From Clostridiales bacterium (GTDB lineage: Bacteria > Bacillota > Clostridia > TANB77 > CAG-508): DNA of 64,000 nt. The stretch covers positions 19,799 through 83,798 of the forward strand of contig SVGD01000005.1 in the NCBI GenBank assembly GCA_015056485.1, written 5' to 3'. Shown here one piece after another: positions 27,802 to 46,229 of the stretch (its first letter is position 1; every line of letters begins with the position of its first letter). The notes below the pieces were generated by a model, which was not told the origin of the DNA, made no database searches, and saw only the letters and a list, made by a program, of their open reading frames with translations. The translations under genes and the position numbers were made by a program.

Positions 27802-29280
27802 ATGGAAAATTTGGAGATATATGAGGATATCGCGAATCGTACTGATGGAGATATATATGTTGGTGTTGTTGGTCCAGTAAGGACAGGTAAATCTACATTT
27901 ATTAAAAATTTTATGGATTTATTAGTTTTACCAAATATTGAAAATACATATAAAAAAGAACGTGCAAGAGATGAACTACCACAAAGTGCAGCAGGTAGAA
28001 CTATAATGACTACTGAGCCTAAATTTGTTCCTAATGAAGCTATTGAAATTACAGTAGGAGAGAATTTAAAATTAAAAACTCGCTTAGTAGATTGTGTCGG
28101 ATATTTAATTAATAATGCATTAGGACATATGGAAGGAGAAGTTCCAAGAATGGTAAGAACACCATGGTCTGATACGGAAATACCATTTGAAGAAGCCGCA
28201 GAGATTGGAACTAAAAGAGTTATAACTGAACATTCAACAATTGGAATTTTAGTGACTACAGATGGAAGTATAACAGAAATACCAAGAGCTGATTATATAG
28301 AGGCTGAAGAAAGAGTAGTAAAAGAATTAAAACAAATGAATAAACCTTTTGTTATAGTTTTAAATACCGCACAGCCTTATTCAGATGATACAAAAAGATT
28401 AGCTTTAGATTTAGAAAATCAATATGGTGTATCTGTAATACCAACAGATTGTACTAATTTGAATATAGAAGATGTTAATGATATATTTGGCAAAATATTA
28501 TATGAATTTCCAGTTGAAAGAATAAATTTAAACTTCCCAGGTTGGGTTGACGGCTTAAATGATAATCATAATTTAAAACAAGAATTATATGGTAAAGTAA
28601 TAGATTCTTTTAAAGATACTTTAGCTATTAAACATATAGATTCAGGATTAAAAAGACTTACTTCATCAGAAATAATAAATAGTACAATAATAGATGAAAT
28701 CAATTTAGGAAATGGAGCTGTTACAGTAAGAATTGCACTAAAAGATGATTTGTTCTACAATGTTTTAACTGAAATAACTGGGGTAGAAATATCAAATGAA
28801 GCGGATTTATTCTCAACAATTGCAAATCTTTCAAGAGCTAAAAAAGAATACGATAAAATAGAAATGGCGCTTCAGGAGGTAAAACAAAAGGGATATGGAA
28901 TTGTTACACCAAGTATGGAAGAACTTATATTAGATGAGCCAGAAATGGTAAAACAAGGTTCAAGATTTGGGGTTAAATTACGCGCTAAGGCTCCGTCAAT
29001 TCACTTAATAAAAGCCGAAATAGAGACTGAAGTTTCGCCAATAGTTGGTAGTGAAAAACAATCTGAAGAATTAGTTAATTATTTGCTTTCAGAATTTGAA
29101 AATGACCCAATAAAAATATGGGAATCAAATATTTTCGGAAAAAATTTACATGAACTTGTAAATGAAGGATTACAAAATAAACTTGCTAAAATGCCAGAAG
29201 ATGCACAAGGAAAATTACAAGAAACTTTAGAAAGAATAATCAACGAAGGAAGCGGAGGACTTATTTGTATTATACTATAA
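27802..29280 (+). CDS. spoIVA: Stage IV sporulation protein A
   Basis: 492 aa. N-terminal Walker A GVVGPVRTGKSTFIK. Length and sequence pattern are characteristic of SpoIVA. Confidence 0.9.
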   Translation: MENLEIYEDIANRTDGDIYVGVVGPVRTGKSTFIKNFMDLLVLPNIENTYKKERARDELPQSAAGRTIMTTEPKFVPNEAIEITVGENLKLKTRLVDCVGYLINNALGHMEGEVPRMVRTPWSDTEIPFEEAAEIGTKRVITEHSTIGILVTTDGSITEIPRADYIEAEERVVKELKQMNKPFVIVLNTAQPYSDDTKRLALDLENQYGVSVIPTDCTNLNIEDVNDIFGKILYEFPVERINLNFPGWVDGLNDNHNLKQELYGKVIDSFKDTLAIKHIDSGLKRLTSSEIINSTIIDEINLGNGAVTVRIALKDDLFYNVLTEITGVEISNEADLFSTIANLSRAKKEYDKIEMALQEVKQKGYGIVTPSMEELILDEPEMVKQGSRFGVKLRAKAPSIHLIKAEIETEVSPIVGSEKQSEELVNYLLSEFENDPIKIWESNIFGKNLHELVNEGLQNKLAKMPEDAQGKLQETLERIINEGSGGLICIIL

Positions 29281-30162: not shown

Positions 30163-31932
30163 ATGAATAATATAAATTTAAAAGAAAAATATTTAAACTT
30201 TTTTGAAAAAAAAGGACATAAAATTATTCCAAGTGCGCCAATCATTCCAGAAAATGACCCAACTTGTCTATTTAATACTGCAGGAATGCAACCATTGGTA
30301 CCATATTTAAAAGGAGAAACACATCCTGAAGGAAATAGGTTGGCAGATGTTCAAAAATGTTTTAGAACAAATGACTTAGATTCAATAGGTGATAAAACAC
30401 ATCATACATTTTTTGAAATGTTAGGAAACTGGTCTTTAGGTGATTACTTTAAAAAGGAATCAATTGCATGGAGTTTTGAATTACTAACAAAAGAATTAAA
30501 TATACCTGTTGAAAAATTGGCTGTAACGGTTTTTAAAGGAAACGAAATAGTTCCGGCAGATAATGAATCAGCAGATATGTGGCAAGAATTAGGTATAAAA
30601 AAAGAAAGAATTGCATTTTTAGGAGAAGAAAATAACTGGTGGCCAAACATGGAAATGCTAGGACCATGTGGACCTGATACAGAAATTTTCTATTGGAGAA
30701 GTGAAGAACAAGTTCCCAAAAAATTTGAACCAGAAGATGATAATTGGGTAGAAATTTGGAATAATGTTTTTATGCAATACAACCATGAGCAAGATGGAAC
30801 ATTTTCTCCTTTAAAAAATAAAAATGTAGATACAGGATTAGGAGTAGAAAGAGTAACTGCAATATTAGAAGGAGTTACAGATAATTATAAATCTTCAATT
30901 TGGAGAGATGTAATTGAAAAAATCGAAGATATATCAAAACTAAATTATGATGAAGAAAAATATACAAGAAGCATGAGAATTATTGCAGACCATATAAGAG
31001 CTATAGTTATGATTAGCGGAGACGATGCAGGAATTAAACCATCAAATACTGACCAAGGATATATTTTAAGAAGATTAATTAGAAGAACTATTAGATATGC
31101 AAAAAATTTAAATATAGATATAAATACGAATTGGGAACAAGAATTAGCCGAATTAATTATAAATAAATATAGTAAATATTATTCAGAACTTGAAAAAAAT
31201 AAAGAAGTAATATTAGAAGTTTTAAATAATGAGAAAATAAAATTTAATAGAACATTAGAAAAAGGTTTAAGAGAATTTGAAAAAATTACAAGTAATTTAG
31301 AAGATGATTTGATAAATAAAGATTTAGCATTTAGATTATATGATACATATGGATTTCCTATAGAACTTACAGAAGAGTTAGCAAGTGAAAAAGGATTAAA
31401 AGTAGATACTGAAGGATTTAAACAAAAATTTAAAGAGCATCAAGAAAAATCTAGAGCAGGTTCTGAACAAAAATTTAAAGGTGGATTAGCCTCAACAGGA
31501 GAAATGGAAACTAAATATCATACAGCAACTCATTTATTAAATGCAGCATTAAAACAAGTATTAGGAGACCATGTTCACCAAAAGGGAAGTAATATTACAG
31601 CAGAAAGAATGAGATTTGATTTTTCACATGATGCAAAAATGACAGACGAAGAAAAACTAAAAGTAGAAAGCTTAGTTAATGAATATATAAAAATGGCAAT
31701 ACCAGTAGAAAAAATGGAAATGAAAAAAGAAGAAGCAATATCTCTTGGAGCAGAAGCTATGTTTATAGATAAATATGGAGATATAGTTACTGTATATAAG
31801 ATAGGAGATGTTTCAATAGAGCTTTGCGGAGGACCTCATGTAGGAAGTACATCAGAATTAGGGACATTCAAAATAAAAAAAGAAGAAGCATCATCCGCAG
31901 GAGTAAGACGTATAAAGGCAGTATTACAATAA
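30163..31932 (+). CDS. alaS: Alanyl-tRNA synthetase, short form (589 aa, no C-Ala domain)
   Basis: FNTAGMQPLVPY, FFEMLGNWSLGDYFK, editing-domain HTATHLLNAAL and CGGPHV. Ends right after GVRRIKAVLQ. Confidence 0.85.
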   Translation: MNNINLKEKYLNFFEKKGHKIIPSAPIIPENDPTCLFNTAGMQPLVPYLKGETHPEGNRLADVQKCFRTNDLDSIGDKTHHTFFEMLGNWSLGDYFKKESIAWSFELLTKELNIPVEKLAVTVFKGNEIVPADNESADMWQELGIKKERIAFLGEENNWWPNMEMLGPCGPDTEIFYWRSEEQVPKKFEPEDDNWVEIWNNVFMQYNHEQDGTFSPLKNKNVDTGLGVERVTAILEGVTDNYKSSIWRDVIEKIEDISKLNYDEEKYTRSMRIIADHIRAIVMISGDDAGIKPSNTDQGYILRRLIRRTIRYAKNLNIDINTNWEQELAELIINKYSKYYSELEKNKEVILEVLNNEKIKFNRTLEKGLREFEKITSNLEDDLINKDLAFRLYDTYGFPIELTEELASEKGLKVDTEGFKQKFKEHQEKSRAGSEQKFKGGLASTGEMETKYHTATHLLNAALKQVLGDHVHQKGSNITAERMRFDFSHDAKMTDEEKLKVESLVNEYIKMAIPVEKMEMKKEEAISLGAEAMFIDKYGDIVTVYKIGDVSIELCGGPHVGSTSELGTFKIKKEEASSAGVRRIKAVLQ

Positions 31933-32459: not shown

Positions 32460-33143
32460 ATGGCATCTAATAAATATGGTAAAATTTTAACAATTATATT
32501 AATAATTTTAGTTATAGCAATTTTAGGAATAGTAGGATTTATAATATATTCTTTAGTAATAAAACCATATAAAGATAATGAAAATATTGAGCAGGCAATG
32601 GCTCAATTTGATTCAACTATTACAGGAGAAGGGGCAGAAAGAGAAAATGTTATTGGAAAAGAAAGTACAAATGAAATTGAACTTACTAACAATATCTCTA
32701 CAGGAAACAGTGGCTCAGGAGGGGGAAGGTCAAAAACATATTATAATGGATATGTAATGTTAGGATATATTGAAATTCCAAAAACAAAGATAAAATATCC
32801 AATAATACAAGATACAACGGTTAAAGCTTTAGAAACAGCTGTTGCTGCGTTATATCCAACAAATGCGGTTTTAAATTCACCAGGGAATATAGTCATAATC
32901 GGTCATAATTATAGAAATGGAAAATTTTTTTCCAATAATAAAAATTTATCTGTAGGAGATAAAATTTATATAACAGGTAATGATGGGAAAGTAGAATATC
33001 TTATATATCAAATATTTGAAGCTGCTCCAACAGACACAAGTTTTTATGGAAGAGATACAGGTGGAGTTCCAGAAATAACTTTATCAACATGTACAGATGA
33101 TGTAAATGCGAGATTAATAATTCTTGCAAAAGCAAATATTTAA
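32460..33143 (+). CDS. Sortase (membrane-anchored transpeptidase)
   Basis: N-terminal TM, GHNYRNGKFFS, catalytic TLSTCT motif. Confidence 0.85.
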   Translation: MASNKYGKILTIILIILVIAILGIVGFIIYSLVIKPYKDNENIEQAMAQFDSTITGEGAERENVIGKESTNEIELTNNISTGNSGSGGGRSKTYYNGYVMLGYIEIPKTKIKYPIIQDTTVKALETAVAALYPTNAVLNSPGNIVIIGHNYRNGKFFSNNKNLSVGDKIYITGNDGKVEYLIYQIFEAAPTDTSFYGRDTGGVPEITLSTCTDDVNARLIILAKANI

Positions 33144-33215
33144 AAATATTTTTACAAAAACCATTGACAAATCGTATAATATTATTTAAAATATTATACG
33201 TGACTTTTGAAAAAT

Positions 33216-33293
33216 GGTGGATGTAGCTCAGTTGGTTAGAGCGCTGGTTTGTGGCACCAGAGGCCGTGGGTTCAAGTCCCATCTTCCACCCCA
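33216..33293 (+). tRNA. tRNA-His (GTG), CCA encoded
   Basis: Cloverleaf with extra 5' G(-1). Anticodon loop TTGTGGC between stems CTGGT/ACCAG. T-loop GGTTCAAGTCC. Confidence 0.9.
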
Positions 33294-33312
33294 CAAGTCA
33301 GCTAAAATATAT

Positions 33313-33388
33313 TGGGGTGTAGCCAAGTGGTAAGGCACCAGACTTTGACTCTGGCATTTCGGCGGTTCGAGTCCTCCCACCCCAGCCA
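33313..33388 (+). tRNA. tRNA-Gln (TTG), CCA encoded
   Basis: Acceptor TGGGGTG/CACCCCA, anticodon loop CTTTGAC, T-loop GGTTCGAGTCC. A terminator hairpin follows at 33391..33425. Confidence 0.9.
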
Positions 33389-33611
33389 TAAAAAAGAACC
33401 ATCTCTTAAGATGGTTCTTTTTTATATTGAAAGGGAGGACTACTTGCATTTTAAGGCTCTTTTTATTGTAAAAGGTTATTCGCTGAAATATTACAAGGAT
33501 GTTTCTATTGCTTTACAATTGTGTTACAAATATTGAAAAAGAATAAAGATATAATATAATAGATTGTAGAATATAGATAAATATGGAAATTATACAAAAG
33601 AGAGGTAAAAA

Positions 33612-35399
33612 ATGTTGAAAAAAACAAGAATTATTTTAATTACAATTATATTATTAATATTATTTTCTACTACAGTAATGTCAACAGAATTAAAAACAAA
33701 ATTAGAAGTTGTACAAAAGGAAAGTGAAGTCAAATATTTAGAAAATAACCAAGGATATATTTCTAAAACTATTACAGATGTAAATGAAGAAAATGGAGAA
33801 GTTACAGTTGAAGTTAAATTAGCAAATTTAGCAAAAGATATTAATGTTGAAACTGAAACATATGAAAATACAGAAATTATTATAATAATTCCAGAAATTT
33901 TATCAATAAGTGAGAATGCAGATAAGTTAAAACAATATATTGAATATATTGAGATATTTGCAACTAAAATATTCGAAAAAAATTCAAAAACTAAAATAGC
34001 CATAGTAGGAATGAAAGGACCAGTTAGTGATTCTTATATTAACGACCAGGGGAAAATTGTTTATGGAGAAAATAATGAAGGTACAAAGGCCGGAAGTATT
34101 GATAATGCTGAAGTAGTTGTAAGTTTTACAAATGATATAGAAAATATAAAAAATGGAATAAAGAATATGAATGGGACGAAAACCAAATATTATAATAATT
34201 TACAAGCTGCTATTAAGATTGCATCATCTACATTTTCAAATAATGCAAATAAAATATTAATTTCATTATATGATACGGTTCCTAGTGTGTCTATAGGACA
34301 ATGTTCACAAATTACTTGGGGAGGATCAACAGGATTTAGTACAGGCAAAGAAGCAATAATAGCAAAAAATGAAAAGATAGTCAAAACTACAAAAGAAGAA
34401 ATATTATCATTAAAAAAATCTAATATAGATTTTATTTTACTAAGACCAAAAGATACTGATTTTAATCAAAAATGGTATGATGTATCTACTGGAGAACTAA
34501 TGCTAGATTTTGACGGAAGTGAATATGTAAAAAATTTATATGGAACAATGGAGAATCCTACGTATGGAAAAATGTATTCTTTAAATGAAGATAGTTTACA
34601 ACAAATTGTTACAGAAAAGATATATGAAGACGTAATGGAAAAAGTAAGAAATCCTATTGATTCTGCAAAATTAATAGATTATTTTCCTGCAGATATAATT
34701 GAAAACTTTGAATTTGAATGCGTTGACAAACCAAATATTGGAATAGTCTCAGCAAAGATAGACAAACAGAATAATTCAATTTTATGGGATATTGGTACAT
34801 TATCTGGAAATACAACGGCTATATTAAAATATAAATTGAAATTAAAAAATATGAGTAATTCAGAGTTGATAAATAAAACAATAGCTACTAATGAAAAAAT
34901 AGAGTTAACCTATAAAAATAGTGAACAAAAAGATTGTAGCGCTGTTTTAGAAAGTAGTCCAAAAATTAAATTAATAGAGATTAAAGAGGATTTAATTGCT
35001 ACGGTTTCATATAATCCAACATCTAATACAACAGAAACTGTTGAAGCCACAATTAAGACTAACAAACCAGTAAAATCTGTTGAAGGTTGGACACAATCAG
35101 AAGATAGAATGATTTTGACAAAAACATATTCAACAAATATAAAAGAGACGGTGCTTTTGATAGATGATGATGATATGGAGAGAAGAGTTGAGATAAATAT
35201 TAATAATATTGTAAAAGAAAATACAAGTAAAGATGATGACAATAACAATACTAATAATATTTCTGATTCAAATGATAAAACTACATCGAATGTGATTTTA
35301 CCAGATACTGGCAAGGGATTTCTTATAATAGGGGTAATGTTTTTGAGTGGTTGGACAATCTATGTACATAAAAGGAATAAAAAATTTAAAGGAATATAA
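33612..35399 (+). CDS. LPXTG-anchored cell-wall surface protein (possible vWA-like adhesin)
   Basis: Signal peptide, 595 aa. C-terminal sorting signal LPDTG, hydrophobic stretch, KRNKKFKG. Confidence 0.8.
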   Translation: MLKKTRIILITIILLILFSTTVMSTELKTKLEVVQKESEVKYLENNQGYISKTITDVNEENGEVTVEVKLANLAKDINVETETYENTEIIIIIPEILSISENADKLKQYIEYIEIFATKIFEKNSKTKIAIVGMKGPVSDSYINDQGKIVYGENNEGTKAGSIDNAEVVVSFTNDIENIKNGIKNMNGTKTKYYNNLQAAIKIASSTFSNNANKILISLYDTVPSVSIGQCSQITWGGSTGFSTGKEAIIAKNEKIVKTTKEEILSLKKSNIDFILLRPKDTDFNQKWYDVSTGELMLDFDGSEYVKNLYGTMENPTYGKMYSLNEDSLQQIVTEKIYEDVMEKVRNPIDSAKLIDYFPADIIENFEFECVDKPNIGIVSAKIDKQNNSILWDIGTLSGNTTAILKYKLKLKNMSNSELINKTIATNEKIELTYKNSEQKDCSAVLESSPKIKLIEIKEDLIATVSYNPTSNTTETVEATIKTNKPVKSVEGWTQSEDRMILTKTYSTNIKETVLLIDDDDMERRVEININNIVKENTSKDDDNNNTNNISDSNDKTTSNVILPDTGKGFLIIGVMFLSGWTIYVHKRNKKFKGI

Positions 35400-35451
35400 A
35401 TAAAAAAGGCAAGATTATTTTGAAAATTATCTTGCCTTTGAAAGGATAAAA

Positions 35452-36036
35452 ATGAAAGATAATGGAGCACATATAATTTGTTTAATTTTAATAATATTAA
35501 TAATAATTGTAAGTTTTGTATTTGTATATAAGTCGAGAACGGAAGGAACAGATGATACTATGGATATGATGGCTGAAACTGCTCCTGAAGAAAATATAGT
35601 TGAAGAAGACACCTTAATTGTACAAGAATATGAAATAAATGGAATAAATTACGAGGTGATAGCAGTATTAAACATACCAAGTTTAGAAATAGAGTATCCA
35701 GTATTATCAAGTACATCAACAGAATTACTAAAGGTATCTTTGAATAAATATTGGGGTCCAAATCCAAACAGACCAGGAAATCTTTGCATATTAGGACATA
35801 ATTATAATGATTCGAGATTTTTTGGTAAATTAAATAGGATAGAAAATGGAGATATAATACAGTTAACAGATATGTCTGGTAAAGTGGTTGAATATAGCGT
35901 TTATGATACGTATATTGTTGATCCGGACAATACAGATTGCACAAGTCAATTAACAGAAGGAAAAACAGAAATTACATTGATAACTTGTACAGCAACAGGA
36001 AAGCAAAGATTTGTCGTTAAAGCTACAAAAGTATAA
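35452..36036 (+). CDS. Sortase (second copy)
   Basis: N-terminal TM, LGHNYNDSRFFG, catalytic TLITCT. Confidence 0.85.
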   Translation: MKDNGAHIICLILIILIIIVSFVFVYKSRTEGTDDTMDMMAETAPEENIVEEDTLIVQEYEINGINYEVIAVLNIPSLEIEYPVLSSTSTELLKVSLNKYWGPNPNRPGNLCILGHNYNDSRFFGKLNRIENGDIIQLTDMSGKVVEYSVYDTYIVDPDNTDCTSQLTEGKTEITLITCTATGKQRFVVKATKV

Positions 36037-36220
36037 TTTTATAAAATTGAGGAAAGAATATGAAAACAAAATGTTAGTATTATGGTAGTTATATTAGTGG
36101 ATGCTATTAAATGTATAGTTTATAAGGAGAAACTTTCAAATGAAAATATTATAATTTTTTTTTATTGAAAAAATAATAGCAATAATATATAATTTTTAAA
36201 AAAGTAAAGGAGAGATAAAA

Positions 36221-37262
36221 ATGACAAAAAACAAAAGAATAATTATAGCAATAATTATAGTAGCAATAGTTATAGTTTGTGCAATTATAGGATTTTTTAT
36301 ATTAAAAAACGCAGAGAAAAGAGAAATAGTATATATTAACCCCAATGAACGGAGATATAAATAAATTAGCTTTTATTTTAAATGATAATGAAAATAAATA
36401 TGTTGTCGCAATAGATGAACAATATACAATAAATCCAGAAAAACAATATTTCGAACAAGGTAATGATTTTGAATTTGAAATTTATTCATCAATAAATGAT
36501 ACAATCAATATAAGAGATAGTAAAATGCAATTAGAAATTGGGATGCTAGAAACATATAATGAAGAAAATGAAATTATAAAAAATGATGAAAGATGGTTTT
36601 TATTGAAAGACGATGCTGTTAGGGGAAAAGAAGTCGGATATTCAATTTGTTATTGTGTTGATGAAAATTCAAATCTTTCTGTTGGTGAAGAGCTTAAATC
36701 AGACGATATAATTTGTTTTAAGACTATTTATGATGTTAAAGAATCAAAAGCAAAAAAAGAGTATGAGAGTATAAAATCAAATATTGATATTTATATGGCT
36801 GAGGATAATGAAGGAATATTAGTATATAAAAATTTTCAAGGCGAAAATGTTAATTTAGATAATTATCAATTTGCTAGAGATATAATAACTAAATCTCTTT
36901 TTGGTTATGATATTTATATTAGAAATTCTAAAGGTATAAAAGAAAATGTATCAGAAAGTGAAGTTTGGTATAAAGTTCCAGATGATGAAAATGAAACACA
37001 ATATGAAATTTCTATTTGTACTCAAGAAAAGATAGATGAAAATAGAGAAGGTGCTGCTTTTGATTTAAATTATAAATTTGAACATAATGATAGAGAATAT
37101 GAAGTTATGACTACAGAATTAGGAGGAAGCCTTAATTTCTATACAAAAATAGGAGAAAATGAATTTGTTTATATTTTCATGAAGGGTAAAGATATAGAAT
37201 ATCAATCTATAAATGATAACCTTGAAATTTTTGTTGAAAGAATAAAAGAACAATTATTATAA
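36221..37262 (+). CDS. Membrane-anchored hypothetical protein, TM anchor and ectodomain joined by a +1 shift at CGG-A
   Basis: ATG 36221 after AAGGAGAG gives MTKNKRIIIAIIIVAIVIVCAIIGFFILKNAEKREIVYINPNE. CGG at 36350..36352. It continues in +1 as GDINKLAFILNDNENKYVV... (track ORF 36345..37262). Confidence 0.65.
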
Positions 37263-38266: not shown

Positions 38267-38299
38267 TTTTTTTATAAGGAAAAATGGATAATTTAATAA

Positions 38300-38499: not shown

Positions 38500-38520
38500 C
38501 GATTCCGCGTCTAGGCACCA
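38500..38520 (+). repeat. 21-bp direct duplicate of the tRNA-Phe 3' end (att-like scar)
   Basis: CGATTCCGCGTCTAGGCACCA occurs at 38355..38375 and again at 38500..38520. The 124 bp between them are G+C-richer and carry two hairpins. Confidence 0.8.
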
Positions 38521-38694
38521 AAGGCACAGCGAAAGCTGTGCCGATTTTTTTATTGTGCGAAATTGAATCACTATTCACTCTTCATTTTTCAATGTAATTT
38601 AATTTCTATTATTTAAATATAAATCGAATAATTTAAAACATAAAAAAGTTCTCAGGAGATGCTTAAAACTGAGAACTTTATTTTTTTGATGTAC

Positions 38695-38937
38695 TTAAGA
38701 GAGATTTAAAATTCGTGCTTGTTCAATTGTCATAGGAACAAAAGATAACATCGTTCCCTTATACATTTCAAGTGCAGTAAATTGATTAAGAACATCCATT
38801 GCAACTTCAAATGTGTTGATATCTGTTGAAAATGACAAATCGATAAAGCGAAGATTAAAATCTGTTCTACTTATATGCACTAATTCAGGATTATCACGAT
38901 TTAAGTGGTCTAATCTAATTATGCTAGTAGCTTGCAA
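38695..38937 (-). CDS. Hypothetical 80-aa protein
   Basis: Likely TTG start at 38937, 6 nt after GGGAGTG (the track ORF starts at 38952). No recognisable motif. Confidence 0.4.
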   Translation of the reverse strand: MQATSIIRLDHLNRDNPELVHISRTDFNLRFIDLSFSTDINTFEVAMDVLNQFTALEMYKGTMLSFVPMTIEQARILNLS

Positions 38938-39116
38938 AAAAATCACTCCCAATAAATATATTTTAATGAGTATAATTAGTAAGCACCTCTATACTAATTA
39001 AATGTGCCAATTTATATAATTATATCATAATAAGTATTCATTGACAATGAATTTACCTAGTGTTAAAATTAAATAATAAACTAAAGAATTAATTTTATAA
39101 AACATATTATGAAATT

Positions 39117-40289
39117 ATGAGAGGAAAACAAATAAAAAAACAAAGGCACGAAACCGTTGGCGATGTAACGCACAACGGTCTAAATAAAGAAAAATTTTTT
39201 GAATTTATAAAAAAAGAAATTGTATTAGTTGTTGCAATTATAATAGCAATTATTACATGCTTTTTTGTACCTATTGATAAAGAATATTTAAATTATTTTG
39301 ATTATAATACTTTGATATGTTTGTTTTGCATTTTGGCAGTAGTAGCAGGATTGAAGAGTACAAATATTTTCGAGTTAATTTCGAAAAAGATGGTAGGATT
39401 GTTTCATACCAGACGTTCTGTAATATATTTATTAGTTTTTGGAACATTTTTTTTCGATATGATAGTTGCAAATGATATGTCATTGATTACTTTTTTACCT
39501 CTTACATATATAGTTTTACATTCTACTAAAAATGATAAATATTTAGCATTTACATTTATAATGCAAACAATTGCAGCAAATATGGGAGGAATGATAACTC
39601 CTTATGGAAATCCTCAAAATTTATATCTATATTCATATTACAACATAAATACTGTAGAATTTTTTAGTATTTTATTACCTCAATCGATAACTGTAGCAGT
39701 ACTTTTATATATTTGCTGTTCTTTTATAAGTAATGAACCTCTAAAATTAAGAAAAAATTTTAAAATAATTATTAGCAAAACAAATTTAATTGTATATTCA
39801 ATTTTATTTGTAATAGTAATTTTAACTATATTTAGAGTGATTCCATATTTATTAACGTTATTTATTGTTTTGATAACGATATTTTTGACTGATAAAAAAA
39901 TATTTATAAAAATAGATTATGCATTAATTGCAACATTTTGTGCGTTTTTTGTATTTTCAGGTAATATGGCAAGAATTGCAGAAATTAAAAGTTTTATTTC
40001 CGAAATAGTTTTAAATAATACACTTATTGCTGGAATAATATCTTGCCAATTTATAAGTAATGTGCCTACAGCAATATTTTTATCAAAGTTCACAATTAAT
40101 TATAGAGAATTATTAACAGCGGTTAATATAGGTTCGCTAGGTATTCTTATTTCGTCGCTAGCAAGTTTGATAACATTGAAAGAGTTTTTAAAACATCAAC
40201 CTAAAAGGTTTTGGCAATATTTGGGAATGTTTACATTGTTTAATACATGTTTTTTAATGGTTTTATTATTAATAACGAATGTAAAGTAG
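39117..40289 (+). CDS. ArsB/NhaD-superfamily anion permease (YbiR-like)
   Basis: 390 aa, about 10 TM. GGMITPYGNPQNLYLYS motif typical of this family. Start uncertain (no clear RBS). Confidence 0.7.
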   Translation: MRGKQIKKQRHETVGDVTHNGLNKEKFFEFIKKEIVLVVAIIIAIITCFFVPIDKEYLNYFDYNTLICLFCILAVVAGLKSTNIFELISKKMVGLFHTRRSVIYLLVFGTFFFDMIVANDMSLITFLPLTYIVLHSTKNDKYLAFTFIMQTIAANMGGMITPYGNPQNLYLYSYYNINTVEFFSILLPQSITVAVLLYICCSFISNEPLKLRKNFKIIISKTNLIVYSILFVIVILTIFRVIPYLLTLFIVLITIFLTDKKIFIKIDYALIATFCAFFVFSGNMARIAEIKSFISEIVLNNTLIAGIISCQFISNVPTAIFLSKFTINYRELLTAVNIGSLGILISSLASLITLKEFLKHQPKRFWQYLGMFTLFNTCFLMVLLLITNVK

Positions 40290-40390
40290 GTAATGTTTTT
40301 ATTACTTAGATTTGACATAAATTAAGTTTGATTGTATAATAATTAAGTTATTTTCCTAGTTTGGCAATTTGAAACGAAAGGGGAATCTTT

Positions 40391-40630
40391 ATGAGCAGAT
40401 ATGCTTATGACGTTAGCCAGCCGGACTATAGCTATGTAAGAAATCGCGAAGCAAGGATTGTTGAAGAAAAGGATGGAATTTCCAGAAAACTTATAACTTC
40501 AAATCAGTCTACAGCAGAGGATTTTAAAAAGTGGCTCGATGAAAGCAACCCTAAAGGATTCAAAGCTGAAGGCGGCATTGAATTCGACAAAAAAAAGAAT
40601 GAATGGACAGTTCCTTATAAAATTAAATAA
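40391..40630 (+). CDS. Hypothetical 79-aa protein in a G+C-richer islet
   Basis: AAAGGGGA RBS. Composition unlike the neighbours. Own terminator AGCCTCGCTGGTTTTCTAGCGAGGTT plus T-run. Confidence 0.45.
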   Translation: MSRYAYDVSQPDYSYVRNREARIVEEKDGISRKLITSNQSTAEDFKKWLDESNPKGFKAEGGIEFDKKKNEWTVPYKIK

Positions 40631-40803
40631 TTGTCTATAAAAGCCTCGCTGGTTTTCTAGCGAGGTTCATTCTTTTTTTATAATCAATCCTTTTATGCAT
40701 GCCTAATTTCTTAAAAAAAATGAATTTTTCCTTGCTATTTTTTTTATTATATTGTATGATTATATAGATAAAAATGGAATTATATTAGGAGGAAAGTTTT
40801 ACT

Positions 40804-41220
40804 ATGAAAAAAGTATTAGTATTTGTAACAGTACTATTAATAATGATTTTATCAACAACTATAGTTTTAGCTACAGAACAAAATAAAACTGAAATAAACA
40901 CAACAAACCAAGAAACGACAAGTGAAATAATTGAACAAAAAGAAGATGCTCAATCAAAAATGGATAAATATATAGAGGATTACGGTTCAGAAACTTATGG
41001 TATGGTAGCATATGTTTTAAATATTATTAGTATTTATAGTATACCATTTTGTTTTGTGGGAATTGCTATTGGTGCAACATATCAATATGCAATCGGTACA
41101 AGAAGATTGGATATGAAACAGAAGGGATTCGCTTTGATATTATCTTTTGTAACGATTTTAGTAATTTGCCAAGTATTACCACTAATATTTTTAGTAGTTG
41201 TAAAAGGTTGGAGGGGTTAA
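40804..41220 (+). CDS. Secreted/membrane protein (signal peptide plus 2 TM)
   Basis: 138 aa, AGGAGG RBS. Stop lies 3 nt before the next gene. Confidence 0.5.
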   Translation: MKKVLVFVTVLLIMILSTTIVLATEQNKTEINTTNQETTSEIIEQKEDAQSKMDKYIEDYGSETYGMVAYVLNIISIYSIPFCFVGIAIGATYQYAIGTRRLDMKQKGFALILSFVTILVICQVLPLIFLVVVKGWRG

Positions 41221-41223
41221 CAA

Positions 41224-43722
41224 ATGAAAGTTCTATTTGCAGTAAATAACGATGAAATTTCAAATGCAATTATAAAAAAATACCAAAAAGAATATAAAGA
41301 AATAATTTCATACAAAAATGTATATTATTTTAATGCAATAATAAAAGAACTTCAAAAAGACAGTACATATGACAGAATAGTTATTAGTGAAGAATTAGAA
41401 CCATTTGCTAATAATAATTATGATACGATTGATAAATTTATATTTGAGAAGTTAGATAATATAAGTGATGAAGCCACAAATAAATCAGGAAATGACATAG
41501 AAATAATATTAATTTGTAGTGATAGAAGAACTAAATCGGATGAAATATTAATAAAGTTATTTGGAATAGGCATATATAGTGCTATTGTTGGTAATGATAG
41601 AAGCATAGATGAAGTTTGCAGATTGATACGTACACCTAGAATCAAAAAAGATGCTAAACAATATTATAAAATTGATTCAGAAAATGTAATGTATCAAGTT
41701 GAAAGCGAGAATAACGTTAGCGAAGCTGAGGTTCAAAATATTCTTGCACATTATAAAAGATTGGGGAAAAATGAAGACAAGTATGTAGATAGTTTTAATA
41801 ATATAGTTTCACAATATACAGATGCACAATTGAAAATTATTATAAGATATTTACCTATGTCTGTAAAAGCAGTATTAGAAGAAAGGTCGCCTAAATATCA
41901 ATCTTTAGTTACTTTTAGTAATAAAGGAAGAGCTAAACAAGCAAGTAATCAAGATAACAATAGAAAAGAAAAAAATAATTTAAATGTGAAAATGTTAGAA
42001 AAAGAATCTACAAAACAAAACATAAAAAAACCTATAGTTATACCATCAAAAATGGATTTGAATTCTACAAAAAAGATTATGAAACAGGAACAAAATAAGA
42101 ATCAAAGCCAAGAAGATGATTTTATAGATTTAACTACAGAGTTCGATATGTTTGATGATGAGGAAAGTACAAACGATAACGCTGTAATAGAAAACAAACA
42201 AATAACTGAAGAAAAAGTAGATAATATAATAGAAAAAGAAAATAAAATAGAGGAAGAAATCACAGAGCAACCAAAAAGAGGAAGAGGAAGACCAAGAAAA
42301 AATCCTATTGAAGAAAATAATGTTGAGGATAAACCAAAAAGAGGAAGAGGAAGACCAAGAAAAAATCCTATTGAAGAAAATAAAGAGACAGAGCTTGACG
42401 AAGAGGATTTAGATTTATTTGATATAGAAGAAAAAGCAATAAATAATAAAGAGGATGATTTAGACTTATTTGATGAGCTTGATGAAATTGAGGAAGAATC
42501 TTTAGATTTATTTGAGGAAGACGATGAGATAGAATCAGAAGACCAAGATGACAGTGATGAATTAGACTTGTTTGGTGATGATGATAATGATGACGAATTA
42601 GATTTATTTGGTAATGATGAAGAAGAAAATTATGATGAATTAGATTTATTCGGTAATGATGATAATGAAGAAGATGATGATGAATTAGATTTGTTTAGTG
42701 ATATTACAAATGAAGAAAAAAAAGAAGAAGATTTTTTTGCAAATGATAATCAAAGTAAAGACATGAATTCAACAGAAATGAATTTTAATGATAATAATGA
42801 TAGAAGACAGGGAGATAGAAGACAAGGAGACAGAAGACAAATTCAAAATGATTTTATTTCTAAGGATAAAAAGATTGCTGCTTTTGTAGGTACAACAAAA
42901 AATGGAACATCGTTTATTGTAAATAATTTAGCAGAATTGTTATCATCAATGGGAATATCTACAGCAATTTTAGATATGTCAAAAAATAAGAATGCATATT
43001 ATATTTATACAGATAATAACGAAAACTTGAGACAAGTGGCATCTAACTGTATGTATAAATTAAAGACAAATGTTGCAGAAGGAATACAAGTAAATAAAAA
43101 TCTATCAATTTTCACAGATATACCAGGAGAAGAAAAAGAATATACTACAAGTGAAATAGATACTATTTTAAATACTTTAACACAGAGATTTTCAGTAGTT
43201 TTAATTGATTGTGATTTTCAAACAGCAAGTCGATATTTTGAAAAAGCTCAAGAAATATATTTAGTGCAATCTATGGATGTTCTAACTATACAACCATTAA
43301 CTGCATTTTTAAAACAGTTAAAAAATAGAAATATTTTAAAACAAGAAAAATTAAGAGTTGTTATAAACAAAGAACAAAAAATGAAAAATTTACCATTAAA
43401 ACTTTTAATTGCAGGTATTTCAAAATATAATTCGCCAGATATGACATTAATGGATGAGCTATTTAATAAAGATACAATTAATTATTGTACAGTTCCATTT
43501 GAAATGCAAAATTATTCAAAATACTTAGAAGGTTTAGTTGAATGTTCATTGTCATTGAATGGATATACAAAACAATTGATATCAGCACTAAGAGGGTTAG
43601 CTGATATGGTATATCCTTTAGGAGGAAGAACGACATATACTCCAAGAACATCAGGTTATAATAATAATTTTTCATCAGAAGTTAATACTACATTAGATAG
43701 AATGAAAAAAAATTATCAATAA
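41224..43722 (+). CDS. TadZ/CpaE-like protein: atypical receiver domain, 2 AT-hooks, acidic LDLF repeats, degenerate ParA/MinD ATPase domain
   Basis: N-terminus MKVLFAVNNDE...DRIVISEEL (REC-like, acidic pocket altered). PKRGRGRPRKNPIEEN x2 from exact 50-nt repeats at 42271 and 42334. About 8 (D/E)LDLF motifs. RRQGD x3. C-terminus IAAFVGTTKNGTSFIVNNLAELL...VVLIDCDF (Walker A Lys absent). Confidence 0.6.
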   Translation: MKVLFAVNNDEISNAIIKKYQKEYKEIISYKNVYYFNAIIKELQKDSTYDRIVISEELEPFANNNYDTIDKFIFEKLDNISDEATNKSGNDIEIILICSDRRTKSDEILIKLFGIGIYSAIVGNDRSIDEVCRLIRTPRIKKDAKQYYKIDSENVMYQVESENNVSEAEVQNILAHYKRLGKNEDKYVDSFNNIVSQYTDAQLKIIIRYLPMSVKAVLEERSPKYQSLVTFSNKGRAKQASNQDNNRKEKNNLNVKMLEKESTKQNIKKPIVIPSKMDLNSTKKIMKQEQNKNQSQEDDFIDLTTEFDMFDDEESTNDNAVIENKQITEEKVDNIIEKENKIEEEITEQPKRGRGRPRKNPIEENNVEDKPKRGRGRPRKNPIEENKETELDEEDLDLFDIEEKAINNKEDDLDLFDELDEIEEESLDLFEEDDEIESEDQDDSDELDLFGDDDNDDELDLFGNDEEENYDELDLFGNDDNEEDDDELDLFSDITNEEKKEEDFFANDNQSKDMNSTEMNFNDNNDRRQGDRRQGDRRQIQNDFISKDKKIAAFVGTTKNGTSFIVNNLAELLSSMGISTAILDMSKNKNAYYIYTDNNENLRQVASNCMYKLKTNVAEGIQVNKNLSIFTDIPGEEKEYTTSEIDTILNTLTQRFSVVLIDCDFQTASRYFEKAQEIYLVQSMDVLTIQPLTAFLKQLKNRNILKQEKLRVVINKEQKMKNLPLKLLIAGISKYNSPDMTLMDELFNKDTINYCTVPFEMQNYSKYLEGLVECSLSLNGYTKQLISALRGLADMVYPLGGRTTYTPRTSGYNNNFSSEVNTTLDRMKKNYQ

Positions 43723-43740
43723 ACAAAAAGAGGTGCAATC

Positions 43741-44829
43741 TTGCTTATAGGAATAATAATATTTTTAGTTATACTTATAATTGCATTAACAGCATATAAC
43801 TTATCTATTAGTAAAAAAATAAAAACATTTTCTAATATTAATGAAAAAATATCGAACTTAAATGTTTTGCAAGATTTCATTAATACAATTGGAAAGGATA
43901 TGCCTGTTAATAACAAAATTGAAGTAATAAACGATATAATAATTCAAAAATTTAATATAAAATATTCAACGATAGTTGTTTTTAATGGTGCAGAATATGT
44001 TTTAAAAACATCAAATGTAGATGAAAAACACTGGGAAACATTAAGAAATTTACATACTGAAGAAATTTTTAAGGATAGTATAATGACTGCTACTCCAAAA
44101 CATATTACTGTAGACAAGCCAGAAGAAAAGCTTCCTTATCAAAAATTTGAATTAGGAAGAGCGAAATCAGCAATCTTTTTTCCATTATATATAGATAATA
44201 TATATATTGGATATTGGATTATTGAAAGTAATGAACCACATGCGTTTGACCATTTTGATACTAACATATTAGGAATAGTTAAAGAAAATATTGTTGCTGT
44301 TTTAAAAACAGTTAGTTATCAAAATACTATAGAAAATATATACAGAGTAGATAAAACAACGGGCTTAAATTCAGCAGAATATTTATATGGAAAAGCTAAG
44401 AGTATCATTGATAAATATCCACAATCTACAATATGTATGTTTACTATAACAAATATAGAGGATATTAATAGAAAATTTAATAGAAATGTTGGTACTGATG
44501 TTATAGTAAAAATGACTAATTTAATAAAGACAAGTATTTCGGCGGAATATATTTTCGTGAGATATATGGGACCAAAATTCGCAATTGTATTTTCAGGTGT
44601 AGATGAAGAAAGCGTTATGAATTTTGTAACATCTATAAAAAAAGAAATAGAAAAAATAAGATTATCTAAGAAAAGCAAAACAAAGAAAGAAATTGAATAC
44701 ACATTTCCAAAAACAAATTTTGCAATAGCTAATTATTACAAAGGTACTGGTTTAGAAGAAGTAACTAAAAAATTAGAAGAATATTTAGATAATGCTAATA
44801 TTAATGAATCGAATATTAATTGTATATAG
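43741..44829 (+). CDS. Membrane-anchored sensor protein with degenerate GGDEF domain
   Basis: TTG start after AGAGGTG. N-terminal TM, GAF-like middle. C-terminal GGDEF fold with RYMGPKFAIVF in place of RxGGDEF. Confidence 0.6.
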   Translation: MLIGIIIFLVILIIALTAYNLSISKKIKTFSNINEKISNLNVLQDFINTIGKDMPVNNKIEVINDIIIQKFNIKYSTIVVFNGAEYVLKTSNVDEKHWETLRNLHTEEIFKDSIMTATPKHITVDKPEEKLPYQKFELGRAKSAIFFPLYIDNIYIGYWIIESNEPHAFDHFDTNILGIVKENIVAVLKTVSYQNTIENIYRVDKTTGLNSAEYLYGKAKSIIDKYPQSTICMFTITNIEDINRKFNRNVGTDVIVKMTNLIKTSISAEYIFVRYMGPKFAIVFSGVDEESVMNFVTSIKKEIEKIRLSKKSKTKKEIEYTFPKTNFAIANYYKGTGLEEVTKKLEEYLDNANINESNINCI

Positions 44830-44838
44830 GAGGATTTT

Positions 44839-45093
44839 ATGGTTAGTGATGAGACTATGAATTTTAAATTTGAAAAGGAAAATAATATAAAAGCAAAGAA
44901 TTTATTAAAAGAAGTGTATGAAGCATTGGCTGAAAAAGGATACAATCCTGTTAATCAAATAGTAGGGTATATATTATCAGGAGATCCAACATATATAACA
45001 AGCTATAAAAATGCTAGAAATTTGATAAGGGTTATTGAACGTGATGAGTTATTAGAAAGAATGGTAAAAAATTATATAGGAATTGAAGAATAA
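44839..45093 (+). CDS. ireB: IreB-family regulatory phosphoprotein (UPF0297)
   Basis: [41 protein letters not shown]. Confidence 0.85.
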
Positions 45094-45094
45094 T

Positions 45095-45511
45095 ATGAGA
45101 ATACTTTCGATTGATTATGGTGACAGTAGAGTTGGACTAGCAATTACAGATGCTTTAGGCATAACTGCTCAGGGGTTGAAAACAATTTTTCATGAAGGAC
45201 AAGACAAAGTTGTATTAAGCGAATTAGATAAAGTGCTTGAGGAATATGAAATTAATACAATAGTAGTAGGAATGCCTTTAAGTATGAGTGGATGTAAAAA
45301 TGCTAGAGTTGAAAAAACTGAAAAATTTATACACAAATTAAAATGTAAATATAATAAAATAAAAATTGAAATAATTGATGAAAGATTAACAACTGTACAG
45401 GCGCATAAAACAATGAATGCTCTTGAAATAAATAAAAAGAAAAAAAGACAGATTGTTGATACTATAGCAGCAGTATATATATTAGAAACATATATAAATA
45501 AAAAATGTTAA
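45095..45511 (+). CDS. ruvX: Putative pre-16S rRNA nuclease / Holliday junction resolvase-like RuvX (YqgF)
   Basis: MRILSIDYGDSRVGLAITD. Confidence 0.85.
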   Translation: MRILSIDYGDSRVGLAITDALGITAQGLKTIFHEGQDKVVLSELDKVLEEYEINTIVVGMPLSMSGCKNARVEKTEKFIHKLKCKYNKIKIEIIDERLTTVQAHKTMNALEINKKKKRQIVDTIAAVYILETYINKKC

Positions 45512-45555
45512 AATTGTAGTTAATATAATTTTATAAAATAAGAAAGGAGAAAAAA

Positions 45556-45873
45556 ATGGATTTTGAAGAAAATGAAGAATTAGAAATGAATGAGGAGTTA
45601 GATAATATTATCATATTAAATGATGAAGATGGTAATGATGTGAAATTTGAATTTTTAGATTTAATAGAACTAGATTCAGAACAATATATAGTGTTATTAC
45701 CTGTTGAAGAAACTGAAGAACCAGGTGAAGTTGTTATTTTAAAAGTCGAAGAAACTGAATCAGAAGAAGAAGAGTCATATGTAAGTGTTGATGATGAAGA
45801 AACATTAAATCAAGTATTTGATATATTTAAAGAAAAATTCAAAGATGAATTCAATTTCGCAGATGATGAATAA
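45556..45873 (+). CDS. DUF1292 (UPF0473) acidic protein
   Basis: ILNDEDGNDVKFEFLDLIELDSEQYIVLLP. Conserved ireB-ruvX-DUF1292 trio. Confidence 0.8.
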   Translation: MDFEENEELEMNEELDNIIILNDEDGNDVKFEFLDLIELDSEQYIVLLPVEETEEPGEVVILKVEETESEEEESYVSVDDEETLNQVFDIFKEKFKDEFNFADDE

Positions 45874-45892
45874 TTAGATTTGAATTTTACAT

Positions 45893-45918
45893 GTAGGGGC
45901 GGGCCTTGTGTCTGCCCG
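45893..45918. repeat. Single REP-like unit
   Basis: GTAGGGGCGGGCCTTGTGTCTGCCCG. Confidence 0.65.
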
Positions 45919-45952
45919 TGTGATTTAATATTAAATAATAATTATATAAATT

Positions 45953-46032
45953 AAGCTAAAATAATTAATTTTTGAAAATGAAATCTCATTTGTCAAAAAT
46001 TAATTATTTTAGCTTCTTAAATTTTGCTGAAA
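45953..46032. repeat. AT-rich 85-bp palindromic element, copy 2 (copy 1 at 27313..27393)
   Basis: AAGCTAAAATAATTAATTTTTGAAAATGA...TCATTTGTCAAAAATTAATTATTTTAGCTT, nearly identical to the copy inside the 27249 element. Confidence 0.75.
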
Positions 46033-46088
46033 AATATAAAATTTTTCAGCAAATCAATGAGATTTGTAGATTAAATTCACAAAAGTAG

Positions 46089-46117
46089 TTGACAAACTTA
46101 TACAAACTTTATATAAT
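46089..46117 (+). promoter_or_regulatory. rpsB-tsf promoter
   Basis: TTGACA, 17 nt, TATAAT. About 110 nt leader before the AAGGAGG RBS. Confidence 0.65.
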
Positions 46118-46229
46118 ATACAAGTTGAAAAATACGCACGTGGAAGAGCAGCTTGAAATTGTGCTTATTCTAAGTGTTTTTAAGCGTTAAAACTTCTGCG
46201 GAGGTAAAAACAAAAAGGAGGAATTTAAA

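Follow-up and report, generated by a model that had tools for sequence, protein, structure and literature searches.

The 64,000-nt stretch of DNA analyzed here (the window, taken from contig SVGD01000005.1 of a Clostridiales bacterium in the GTDB family CAG-508) carries a gene for a large protein composed of a predicted pseudo-receiver domain, a five-helix bundle, a low-complexity linker with two candidate AT-hooks and an array of acidic motifs, and a divergent ParA/MinD-fold domain (Table 1). The gene is real, strongly conserved, and core in TANB77-type gut Clostridia. As to its function, we favor the reading that the protein is a membrane-associated pseudo-ATPase scaffold of the ParA/MinD (SIMIBI) lineage, held on AT-rich DNA by its hooks, although we do so tentatively and the reading may well prove wrong. 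A first-pass annotation, made from the sequence alone, had described the protein as an orphan TadZ/CpaE-like member of a three-gene positioning or scaffold system. Positioning or scaffolding remains the best reading; membership in TadZ/CpaE was not borne out.

A conserved protein family of gut Clostridia

The focal gene lies in AT-rich DNA (24–34% GC in the window) and is preceded by a Shine-Dalgarno sequence, GGAGG, about 9 nt 5′ of the start codon and inside the last codons of the upstream gene. A protein search yielded over 6,900 relatives at E≤1e-3. The top 120 are without exception full-length (717–902 aa) and for the most part ~52–62% identical to the focal protein, with three reaching up to 86%, and none of them has a name. 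When one genome per GTDB species was scanned, a relative was found to be encoded in at least 588 species, all of them uncultured gut Clostridia, with human, rabbit, chicken, mouse, and termite hosts. Among these is Candidatus Merdicola faecigallinarum, which belongs to the order TANB77 and the family CAG-508 (PMC13106387). A profile search of 1.84 billion cluster representatives returned 906 matches at E≤1e-3 and 259 at E≤1e-30; the family has sharp limits, and ordinary ParA/MinD proteins are not picked up by its profile. Full-length members span ~610 to 1,434 aa, a difference in size that is entirely due to the linker (~110 to ~780 residues), and the gene is single-copy within each locus that was fetched. 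No Pfam or NCBIfam model exists for a family present in at least 588 species representatives, which makes it a sizeable annotation blind spot. The gut lineage in question, TANB77/CAG-508, has been linked to immunotherapy response.

Conservation across an alignment of 22 homologs is strong in the first 230 and the last 290 residues but not in the linker. The dN/dS ratio, calculated from two congeneric relatives (L091 and L092, dS ~0.6–0.95), is 0.03 for the N-terminal domain, 0.06–0.11 for the C-terminal domain, and 0.40 for the linker. The linker changes about ten times faster than the domains, yet its ratio is still below 1. Against close relatives, about 60 gapped columns fall in the linker, every indel is in frame, and the peptide KKPIVIPS, both AT-hooks, and the acidic motifs persist. 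Retention of these motifs, together with the in-frame indels, points to a disordered linker carrying functional short linear motifs. The low complexity, variable length, and fast change of this region are what might suggest hypervariable junk, a prospect considered in the first-pass annotation, or an artefactual open reading frame (ORF) in which read-through of low-complexity sequence has fused two genes. However, the ORF is intact in hundreds of species, and among the profile-search matches no split versions occur except contig-end fragments. With the linker motifs conserved, the hooks regularly spaced (see below), the indels in frame, and dN/dS below 1, this explanation is refuted, and we assign it a negligible probability.

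Two clades can be distinguished. Members of clade A, to which the window belongs, end in the tail F-S-x-x-M-N-x-T-L-N-K-M-K-x-x-Y and have a gene for a GGDEF-like protein downstream. Most contain exactly two AT-hooks and arrays of acidic motifs, and some hook-less members retain acidic D-I-F or E-I-F motifs. Clade B lacks hooks, acidic motifs, and a GGDEF partner, and its ER/K-rich linkers resemble coiled coils or single alpha-helices. In five clade B proteins (P0196, P0221, P0230, P0257, and P0264) the ER/K-rich linkers extend over 280–380 residues, for example AEAKRQAEEEKARQE; spacers of this kind suggest that a long tether has to keep the ends of the protein away from each other. The C-termini of clade B read KKGLFG, RRGLFG, or KGLFR and resemble the membrane-targeting sequence of MinD and FlhG (for the concept, see PMC12826062). 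A few clade A proteins bear KRKGFFG and the clade A tail together. The type of tail was considered as a predictor of the GGDEF partner but gave no clean rule, since P0177 has a tail like the membrane-targeting sequence and also a GGDEF gene. The linkers with DLF motifs, with LPGF motifs, and with ER/K helices form a natural series for studying the evolution of bacterial disordered linkers and short linear motifs.

A ParA/MinD-fold domain with a fixed, altered P-loop

The C-terminal domain was recognized by structure. In a Foldseek search of its AlphaFold2 (AF2) model against the PDB, 242 matches were obtained at E≤1e-3, and all were ParA/MinD-fold proteins (3ea0, FlhG 4rz3, and MinD, FleN, BcsQ, ParA, NifH, and HypB types), with E-values of 3e-9 to 1e-6, template modeling (TM) scores of 0.5–0.7, and identities of 10–18%. 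The highest TM-scores belong to FleN (7ejw, 0.63) and FlhG (4rz3, 0.61). At the level of sequence, neither the whole protein nor any single domain scored above threshold for a Pfam or NCBIfam family; the C-terminal domain scanned alone came closest to CbiA (E=0.003) and MipZ (E=0.04), both below threshold. Among PDB sequences, neither the single domains nor the family profile found anything beyond chance or low-complexity matches. A distant family member, P0192, matches CbiA at E=2.5e-5, just short of the Pfam threshold, which makes homology to ParA/MinD credible.

The P-loop of the domain is altered. Compared with G-K-G-G-V-G-K-T of MinD, both canonical lysines (the signature lysine and that of GK[ST]) are threonines in the focal protein, and a lysine (K559) stands at position 4 instead. 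The first-pass annotation had described a Walker A motif without lysine; the canonical lysines are indeed both gone, but lysine as such is present at this non-canonical position. The sequence does not fit the deviant Walker A pattern x-K-G-G-x-G-K-[ST]. The pattern G-x-x-K-x-G-T-[ST]-F is found in 66 of 66 full-length family representatives, and this invariance indicates a fixed, selected variant and not decay. A Walker B-like segment (VVLIDCDF) keeps its aspartate (D662), and the D-x-D of switch I is replaced by LDM[ST] (LDMS in the focal protein, with D584; aligned by eye). Judging from these substitutions, classical ATP hydrolysis by the domain is unlikely. The protein closes with a conserved tail, modeled with low per-residue confidence (pLDDT) as a helix after a disordered stretch, in which F816, N821, T823, L824, M827, K828, and Y831 are invariant.

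The N-terminal domain adopts a CheY-like fold in the AF2 model. Its Foldseek matches in the PDB are response-regulator receivers and the N-domains of CpaE/TadZ (4myr, 4n0p, 4lda, and 4dad), at E-values of ~1e-3 and TM-scores (normalized to the target) of ~0.72; scanned alone, the domain has no Pfam match. N8 and N9 stand where the acidic Asp-Asp pair of receivers is expected, S55/E56 occupy the phospho-acceptor position, and the conserved lysine after beta5 is absent. On this model the domain is a pseudo-receiver. The layout of receiver-like and ParA/MinD-fold domains, and the altered acidic pocket and phospho-Asp of the former, had both been recognized in the first-pass annotation; the two-domain layout is upheld here by AF2 and Foldseek. 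Between the pseudo-receiver and the linker lies a bundle of five helices (residues 167–179, 184–195, 200–209, 212–221, and 223–229; pLDDT 83–89) that has no Pfam or PDB sequence match.

It is quite improbable, in our view, that the protein is a true TadZ/CpaE acting in trans on a Tad/Flp pilus cluster elsewhere, where it would mark the site of pilus assembly. The domain order of atypical receiver and atypical ParA/MinD domain fits such a role, as does the presence of CpaE/TadZ N-domains among the Foldseek matches. However, no TadZ, CpaE, or ParA hidden Markov model (HMM) matched significantly, no TadZ structure is among the top 50 matches of the C-terminal domain, where FleN and FlhG lead by TM-score, and the P-loop of TadZ keeps its signature lysine, from which the focal pattern differs. 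No tad or cpa genes are nearby, as first noted, either in the window or in any related locus; none lies within 8 kb of the gene in 80 loci, where synteny is with ireB and ruvX instead. A conserved Tad-like cluster is carried by TANB77 genomes, but a TadZ-like protein of 231 aa and a CpaE-like protein of 280 aa are already encoded within it (PMC11680825), and the focal protein is therefore not simply an orphan TadZ.

AT-hooks and acidic motifs in the linker

The linker comprises ~313 residues (233–545), fewer than the ~400 first estimated. In the region of the KKPIVIPS motif, K264, P270, and P274 are invariant in the alignment of 22 homologs and K269 and I273 are more than 90% conserved. The motif is kept in distant long members of the family, for example as PVVIP or GPIVIPSS.

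Two candidate AT-hooks are encoded by an exact direct repeat of 52 nt (42269–42320 and 42332–42383), each copy of which encodes PKRGRGRPRKNPIEEN; the first-pass annotation had found both the hooks and the exact repeat, to which it gave a length of 50 nt. KRGRGRPRK occurs twice, with RGRP cores at residues 354 and 375, and its core, its basic flanks, and its position in a disordered segment are those by which an AT-hook is recognized. K-RGRP-K is invariant in 22 of 22 aligned homologs, and 42 of 66 full-length family representatives contain exactly two RGRP cores. Of the 73 loci in which both hooks were matched, 72 have a hook-to-hook spacing of 18–26 residues (mode 21) and one has a spacing of 34. 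The Pfam AT_hook model scores below threshold on the focal protein (12.7 vs 17.4 bits), as is usual for a model only 13 residues long, and PF02178 is precomputed on homologs P0062 and P0086. Few bacterial families show so clearly that canonical HMGA-type AT-hooks are under strong purifying selection.

In the window the two hook-coding copies are identical over 52 nt, and 23 of 73 loci, the window included, have two identical copies of a 27-nt core. Much of this identity can be attributed to strong codon bias (AGA, AAA, and GGA), but its reach into the flanks suggests a recent gene conversion or duplication in the lineage of the window.

The hooks are followed by a strongly acidic tract with 65 Asp and Glu against 5 Lys and Arg over 121 residues. 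Strict LDLF occurs at residues 396, 413, 427, 447, 459, 473, and 488, and degenerate LDLF-like copies such as DFF and FDMF are also present, so that the array stands as first described, with seven strict copies in place of about eight. In 20,000 shuffles of the linker, LDLF appeared 0.009 times on average and never more than once. The consensus of the motif across the family is (E/D)3-[IVL]-D-L-F-[NDSG]-[LIM]-[DE], and its copy number (2–14 per protein) varies through in-frame indels. [IVL]-D-L-F is found in 32 of 79 GTDB loci; in 44 of 79 it is replaced by [ILMV]-L-P-G-[FLMV], and hybrids such as DELPGLFD occur. The array stays multivalent even where DLF changes to LPGF. The three RRQGD repeats of the first-pass annotation are present farther along the linker, as 2.8 tandem copies, but are absent from the closest relatives (L091 and L092) and from the alignment of 22 homologs; they are lineage-specific.

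One explanation for the repeated phi-D-L-F motif (phi, hydrophobic residue) is that it binds the sliding clamp, DnaN, and that the protein is a sink or loader platform which concentrates beta-clamps or their clients on the nucleoid. ELDLF shares four of five positions with the optimal pentapeptide QLDLF, the LF, L-x-F, and L-P-G-F variants are reminiscent of the division of clamp motifs into pentapeptides and hexapeptides, and KPIVIP resembles the MutL-type motif, which is QEMIVP in B. subtilis (both sequences from 10.64898/2026.05.27.728225). However, position 1 is E, D, L, S, P, or T and never Q in 122 motif instances, and replacement of Q1 by alanine abolishes binding to the clamps of E. 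coli and B. subtilis (10.64898/2026.05.27.728225). Since the residue essential for binding is absent here, we regard this explanation as very improbable. In addition, the MutL-type motif showed no measurable clamp binding (10.64898/2026.05.27.728225), LPGF suits neither clamp consensus well, and three to fourteen motif copies far exceed the two sites of a clamp dimer. Mimicry of the ClpP IGF loop, of the FtsZ C-terminal peptide, and of the SSB tip was also considered and set aside.

Table 1. Coordinates of the focal gene, its predicted parts, and the adjacent conserved genes. Positions are those of the window; residues are those of the focal protein.
Feature	Residues or length	Position	Strand	Basis
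Focal gene	832 aa	41224..43722	+	Uninterrupted ORF
Predicted pseudo-receiver (CheY-fold) domain	~1–140	41224..41643	+	AF2 model m477ac04fa9aa, pLDDT 76.5
Predicted five-helix bundle	~165–230	41716..41913	+	AF2; near-invariant across the family
Linker motif KKPIVIPS	268–275	42025..42048	+	Alignment of 22 homologs
Candidate AT-hook 1, PKRGRGRPRKNP	350–361	42271..42306	+	Exact 52-nt repeat; homolog alignment
Candidate AT-hook 2, PKRGRGRPRKNP	371–382	42334..42369	+	Exact 52-nt repeat; homolog alignment
Acidic motif array	385–505	42376..42738	+	Seven (D/E)LDLF copies
RRQGD tandem repeat	15 nt x 2.8	42799..42840	+	Tandem Repeats Finder
Predicted divergent ParA/MinD-fold domain	~546–814	42859..43665	+	AF2 model meeb71dbbb499, pLDDT 79, predicted TM-score 0.80
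P-loop, G-T-T-K-N-G-T-S-F	556–564	42889..42915	+	AF2 places it exactly between beta1 and alpha1
C-terminal tail, F-S-x-x-[MV]-N-x-T-L-[DN]-[KRQ]-M-K-x-x-[YF], with stop		43666..43722	+	Homolog alignment
Small membrane protein	138 aa	40804..41220	+	ORF; Shine-Dalgarno AGGAGG
Membrane-anchored degenerate GGDEF protein	362 aa	43741..44829	+	Pfam GGDEF, E=1e-8
ireB		44839..45093	+	
ruvX		45083..45511	+	
DUF1292 gene		45556..45873	+	

Partner genes and genomic context

The focal gene belongs to a conserved gene block. In 80 GTDB loci the order is small membrane protein (79 loci), focal gene (80), GGDEF-like gene (80), ireB (79), ruvX (77), and DUF1292 gene (63). The three-gene module of the first-pass annotation is therefore linked as proposed, but the conserved unit is larger and takes in ireB, ruvX, and the DUF1292 gene. 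The gaps between the three module genes are 3 nt and 18 nt, and each gene has its own good Shine-Dalgarno sequence. Terminator-like hairpins are found only around the block (40642–40667 and 45897–45917), and the promoters that match the consensus at 12 of 12 positions (40312 and 46089) are both outside it. This arrangement suggests a single transcript of six genes, in which ireB, ruvX, and the DUF1292 gene are probably co-transcribed with the module. The outer flanks of the window (a CitMHS transporter gene, rpsB, and tsf) are not conserved among loci.

The protein encoded upstream has the two transmembrane helices first described and, in addition, an N-terminal signal or anchor helix and an acidic external segment. 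It received no family assignment in Pfam and NCBIfam scans. Its conserved core reads YG..AY.L....YS.P.CF.GI, and a homolog can be seen in translation in clade B as well. In three hook-less clade A loci (L085, L086, and L087) there are two small unannotated upstream genes in place of one (120+183 aa, 115+172 aa, and 175+251 aa, respectively); here the gene for the membrane partner may be duplicated or may have gained a companion.

The protein encoded downstream consists of an N-terminal transmembrane helix, a conserved domain of ~170 aa that is GAF-like by eye, and a GGDEF domain whose degeneracy, noted earlier, holds throughout: YMGPKF replaces GGDEF in all 79 relatives aligned. By its sequence it is a pseudo-enzyme. 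The gene is also directly downstream in the loci L085–L088 and L090 but is missing in clade B, so that it is a member of the module in clade A only. In clade B the small membrane gene, the family gene, and ireB-ruvX-DUF1292 are still adjacent, with a gene for a PBP5-type carboxypeptidase upstream, and the Pfam labels IreB, RuvX, and DUF1292 are found in related loci of both clades. The ancient core is the membrane protein and the focal gene, inserted ahead of ireB.

The GGDEF-type partner is one of the features that could indicate a transcription regulator or nucleoid-associated protein. Under this explanation the pseudo-receiver would be joined to a helical bundle that binds DNA or RNA polymerase (RNAP), the hooks would be of HMGA type, the MinD-like domain would serve as an anti-activator module in the manner of FleN, and cyclic di-GMP (c-di-GMP) or GTP would be sensed by the dead GGDEF partner. 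FleN and FleN-FleQ complexes have the top TM-scores for the C-terminal domain (0.61–0.63; 7ejw, 5j1j, and 8pb9), the full-length regulators FixJ, StyR, and ARR1 align over ~230 columns of the N-terminal part, if at high root-mean-square deviation (rmsd), and CarD shows that AT-hooks and an acidic region can serve bacterial transcription. We nevertheless consider the explanation unlikely. The helical bundle has no helix-turn-helix, sigma, or GerE signal in Pfam, and the two-domain alignments reach TM-scores of only ~0.39 at an rmsd of 13–17 Å. The partner is devoid of the GGDEF motif, no RxxD I-site was seen on reading its sequence in the window, and an Rfam scan of positions 38000–47000 found tRNAs only, with no c-di-GMP or other riboswitch. 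Finally, clade B functions with neither hooks nor GGDEF partner yet keeps the membrane protein.

A defense or phage origin of the module was considered and rejected. PADLOC gave no match for any of the three module proteins and PHROGs gave none for the large focal protein, and the housekeeping synteny also argues against such an origin; both partner proteins match PHROGs families of unknown function. A literature search for an AT-hook/ParA fusion and for PDB entry 3EA0 returned nothing relevant.

Genes frequently found somewhat farther from the block encode a G5-SH3-glucosaminidase, MurC, UppP, PBP5, MurJ, FtsW, and SpoVG, and the window itself also encodes SMC, Obg, LexA, SpoIVA, and two sortases. 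No tad, min, or flagellar genes were found in the 64 kb. SpoIVA is full-length (27802..29280, three Pfam domains, E=9e-119), and Spo0A and SpoVG are found in related loci; sporulation genes thus seem to have been kept in these reduced, uncultured gut Clostridia. The sortase genes (32460..33143 and 35452..36036) flank an ORF of 595 aa (33612..35399), and an ORF of 305 aa (36345..37262) comes after the second; neither ORF has a Pfam match. The region (32460..37262) may be a cassette for a sortase-dependent surface protein or pilus, which could bear on the pilin-like proteins reported for TANB77.

Several differences in gene arrangement were observed around the block. The gene for alanyl-tRNA synthetase is typically directly next to ireB in Firmicutes. 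In the window it lies ~13 kb upstream, with the three-gene module and other genes intervening, and its ORF (30163..31932) encodes only 589 aa, with tRNA-synt_2c and tRNA_SAD domains and no C-terminal extension. Between the first hairpin and the promoter at 40312–40340, which is perfect, is an ORF of 79 aa (40391..40630) with no family match; it has this promoter and the strong terminator at 40642–40667 to itself and is conserved only in L091, the closest relative examined. A conserved membrane protein of ~159 aa is encoded ~100 nt downstream of the DUF1292 gene in 37 of 80 loci (L001–L080), where from Bacillus mltG would be expected; in the window this position is taken by rpsB-tsf.

Proposed mechanism

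We propose that the focal protein is a cytoplasmic scaffold whose enzymatic and signaling parts have been retired and which would work by binding. The MinD-like domain may dimerize or dock at the membrane, in clade B directly through the MinD-type amphipathic tail and in clade A by way of its two membrane partners and the peptide conserved at the C-terminus. The two hooks, about 21 residues apart, would insert into the minor groove of AT-rich DNA and so tie a chromosome of ~27% GC to the membrane complex without an ATP cycle, as a hard-wired substitute for the DNA binding that in classical ParA proteins depends on ATP. The acidic phi-D-L-F and phi-L-P-G-F motifs could recruit an oligomeric client. 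Alternatively, they might bind the receiver or MinD-like domains of the protein itself and drive self-assembly, as the EIDAL motif of FliM binds CheY. The acidic tract may also temper the binding of the hooks to DNA, as in HMGA and CarD.

The role of such a scaffold could be to coordinate the position of the chromosome with envelope growth or division, and possibly with sporulation. IreB is a cell-wall regulator of the ReoM type, as known from work on Listeria and Enterococcus, and the fixed operon link to ireB together with the frequent peptidoglycan genes suggests coordination of chromosome and envelope. If the link to ireB is functional, it would point to a hitherto unknown connection between chromosome position and the control of peptidoglycan synthesis. 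A more far-reaching version, which we regard as doubtful though not without appeal, holds that the protein is a previously undescribed kind of bacterial chromosome-membrane organizer, derived from MinD/FlhG and with no ATP switch, which grips the AT-rich nucleoid by eukaryote-type AT-hooks and forms a self-assembling, possibly condensate-like hub at the membrane that couples the nucleoid to IreB/ReoM cell-wall synthesis or to sporulation. The EIDAL-like motifs of such a hub would bind its own pseudo-receiver, the MinD-like domain, or the dead GGDEF partner.

In favor of a membrane-associated pseudo-ATPase scaffold stand the predicted folds, the invariant non-canonical P-loop with its altered switch I, the two hooks that keep their sequence and spacing in at least 73 species loci as the linker around them diverges, the selection on the linker and the retention of its motifs, the multivalent acidic array, the synteny with two membrane proteins in 80 of 80 loci, the MinD-like tails of the sister clade, the terminators that bound the operon, the nearby envelope genes, the precedent of CarD, and the AT-richness of all family loci examined (24–33% GC). 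Several points weigh against it. DNA binding, membrane association, and dimerization are all inferred. The displaced K559 could still support nucleotide binding, which leaves the term pseudo-ATPase unproven. The tail of the window protein has a hydrophobic moment of ~0.5 and a mean hydrophobicity of about −0.3; it is polar and unconvincing as an amphipathic membrane helix, and for this reason we do not claim a MinD-like membrane helix for it. The hook-less members sit in equally AT-rich DNA (25–32% GC), so that base composition does not simply explain the hooks. The fixed place beside ireB could reflect an ancestral insertion site and not a shared function. Finally, residues co-varying with the type of motif (DLF vs LPGF) were sought in the N- and C-domains and in the GGDEF and membrane partners. 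The module proteins showed 13 near-fixed differences and the controls (IreB, RuvX, and DUF1292) none, but most of the changes are conservative, and phylogeny confounds them.

ParA/MinD proteins organize cells through ATP-controlled switching between bound states, on DNA or membrane, and a free state. The family described here appears to have exchanged the ATP switch for permanent binding modules (hooks, docking motifs, and membrane partners), which would be another way of reaching the same end.

Comparison with known systems

Like TadZ/CpaE, the focal protein combines an apparently non-phosphorylatable, atypical receiver with a subsequent atypical ParA/MinD-fold domain, and it is presumed to be a landmark or scaffold rather than a motor. 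Unlike TadZ/CpaE, it has no sequence-level match to any TadZ or CpaE model, contains the additional five-helix bundle and a linker of ~310 aa with AT-hooks and acidic motifs, carries the P-loop G-x-x-K-x-G-T-[ST], and is encoded never in a tad locus but always beside ireB-ruvX.

MinD, FlhG, and FleN provide the best TM-scores for the C-terminal domain, and the KKGLFG-type tails of the sister clade resemble the membrane-targeting sequence of MinD and FlhG. FleN works with FleQ, a protein with a degenerate receiver domain, and with c-di-GMP. In contrast to these proteins, the focal protein is without the deviant Walker A sequence KGGxGK[ST], its tail is different, polar, and conserved, and it is fused to its own pseudo-receiver and DNA hooks; no minC, minE, flhF, or flagellar genes are linked to its gene.

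HMGA1/2 and CarD of Myxococcus share with the focal protein a canonical type I AT-hook core (KRGRGRPRK) in a disordered region beside a strongly acidic tract. In HMGA and in the C-terminal domain of CarD, the AT-hooks are accompanied by an acidic part that modulates DNA binding (PMC4482583, PMC2919716). The focal protein differs from both in having only two hooks, at a fixed spacing of ~21 residues and between folded bacterial domains, and in an acidic tract that is built of phi-D-L-F or L-P-G-F repeats and is not a plain acidic tail. Unlike CarD, it has no CarD_TRCF domain for binding RNAP. With Noc and RacA of Bacillus the analogy is functional only: these proteins bind the chromosome and the membrane or pole at once and so coordinate the nucleoid with division or sporulation, as is proposed here, but their folds (ParB-like for Noc, a MerR-like helix-turn-helix for RacA) are unrelated, and they read specific sites where AT-hooks bind AT-rich grooves.

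The acidic motif, E-[IVL]-D-L-F-[N]-L, resembles EIDALL of FliM/FliY, a likeness that extends over five residues only. FlhG is one of the proteins on which the EIDAL motif of FliM/FliY docks. In FliM, the acidic helical EIDALL peptide docks on the receiver domain of CheY (PMC6946799). Unlike in FliM, the motif is repeated 2–14 times in the focal family and is LPGF in many relatives. Since the focal protein holds both a receiver and an FlhG-like fold, self-association through the EIDAL-like motifs is an attractive possibility.

In its way of working the focal protein would come closest to those ParA/MinD-lineage proteins that serve as landmarks or scaffolds (TadZ, FlhG/FleN, and MinD) and, by analogy, to the DNA-membrane tethers Noc and RacA. 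Its membership in TadZ/CpaE or in the deviant Walker A ATPases is not demonstrable, because defining features of both were looked for and not found. The family is undescribed in the libraries searched and unnamed in all sources. What distinguishes it is the fixed P-loop, the union of a pseudo-receiver, HMGA-type hooks, a motif array, and a MinD fold in one protein, the module of three pseudo-enzymes, and the universal position in front of ireB.

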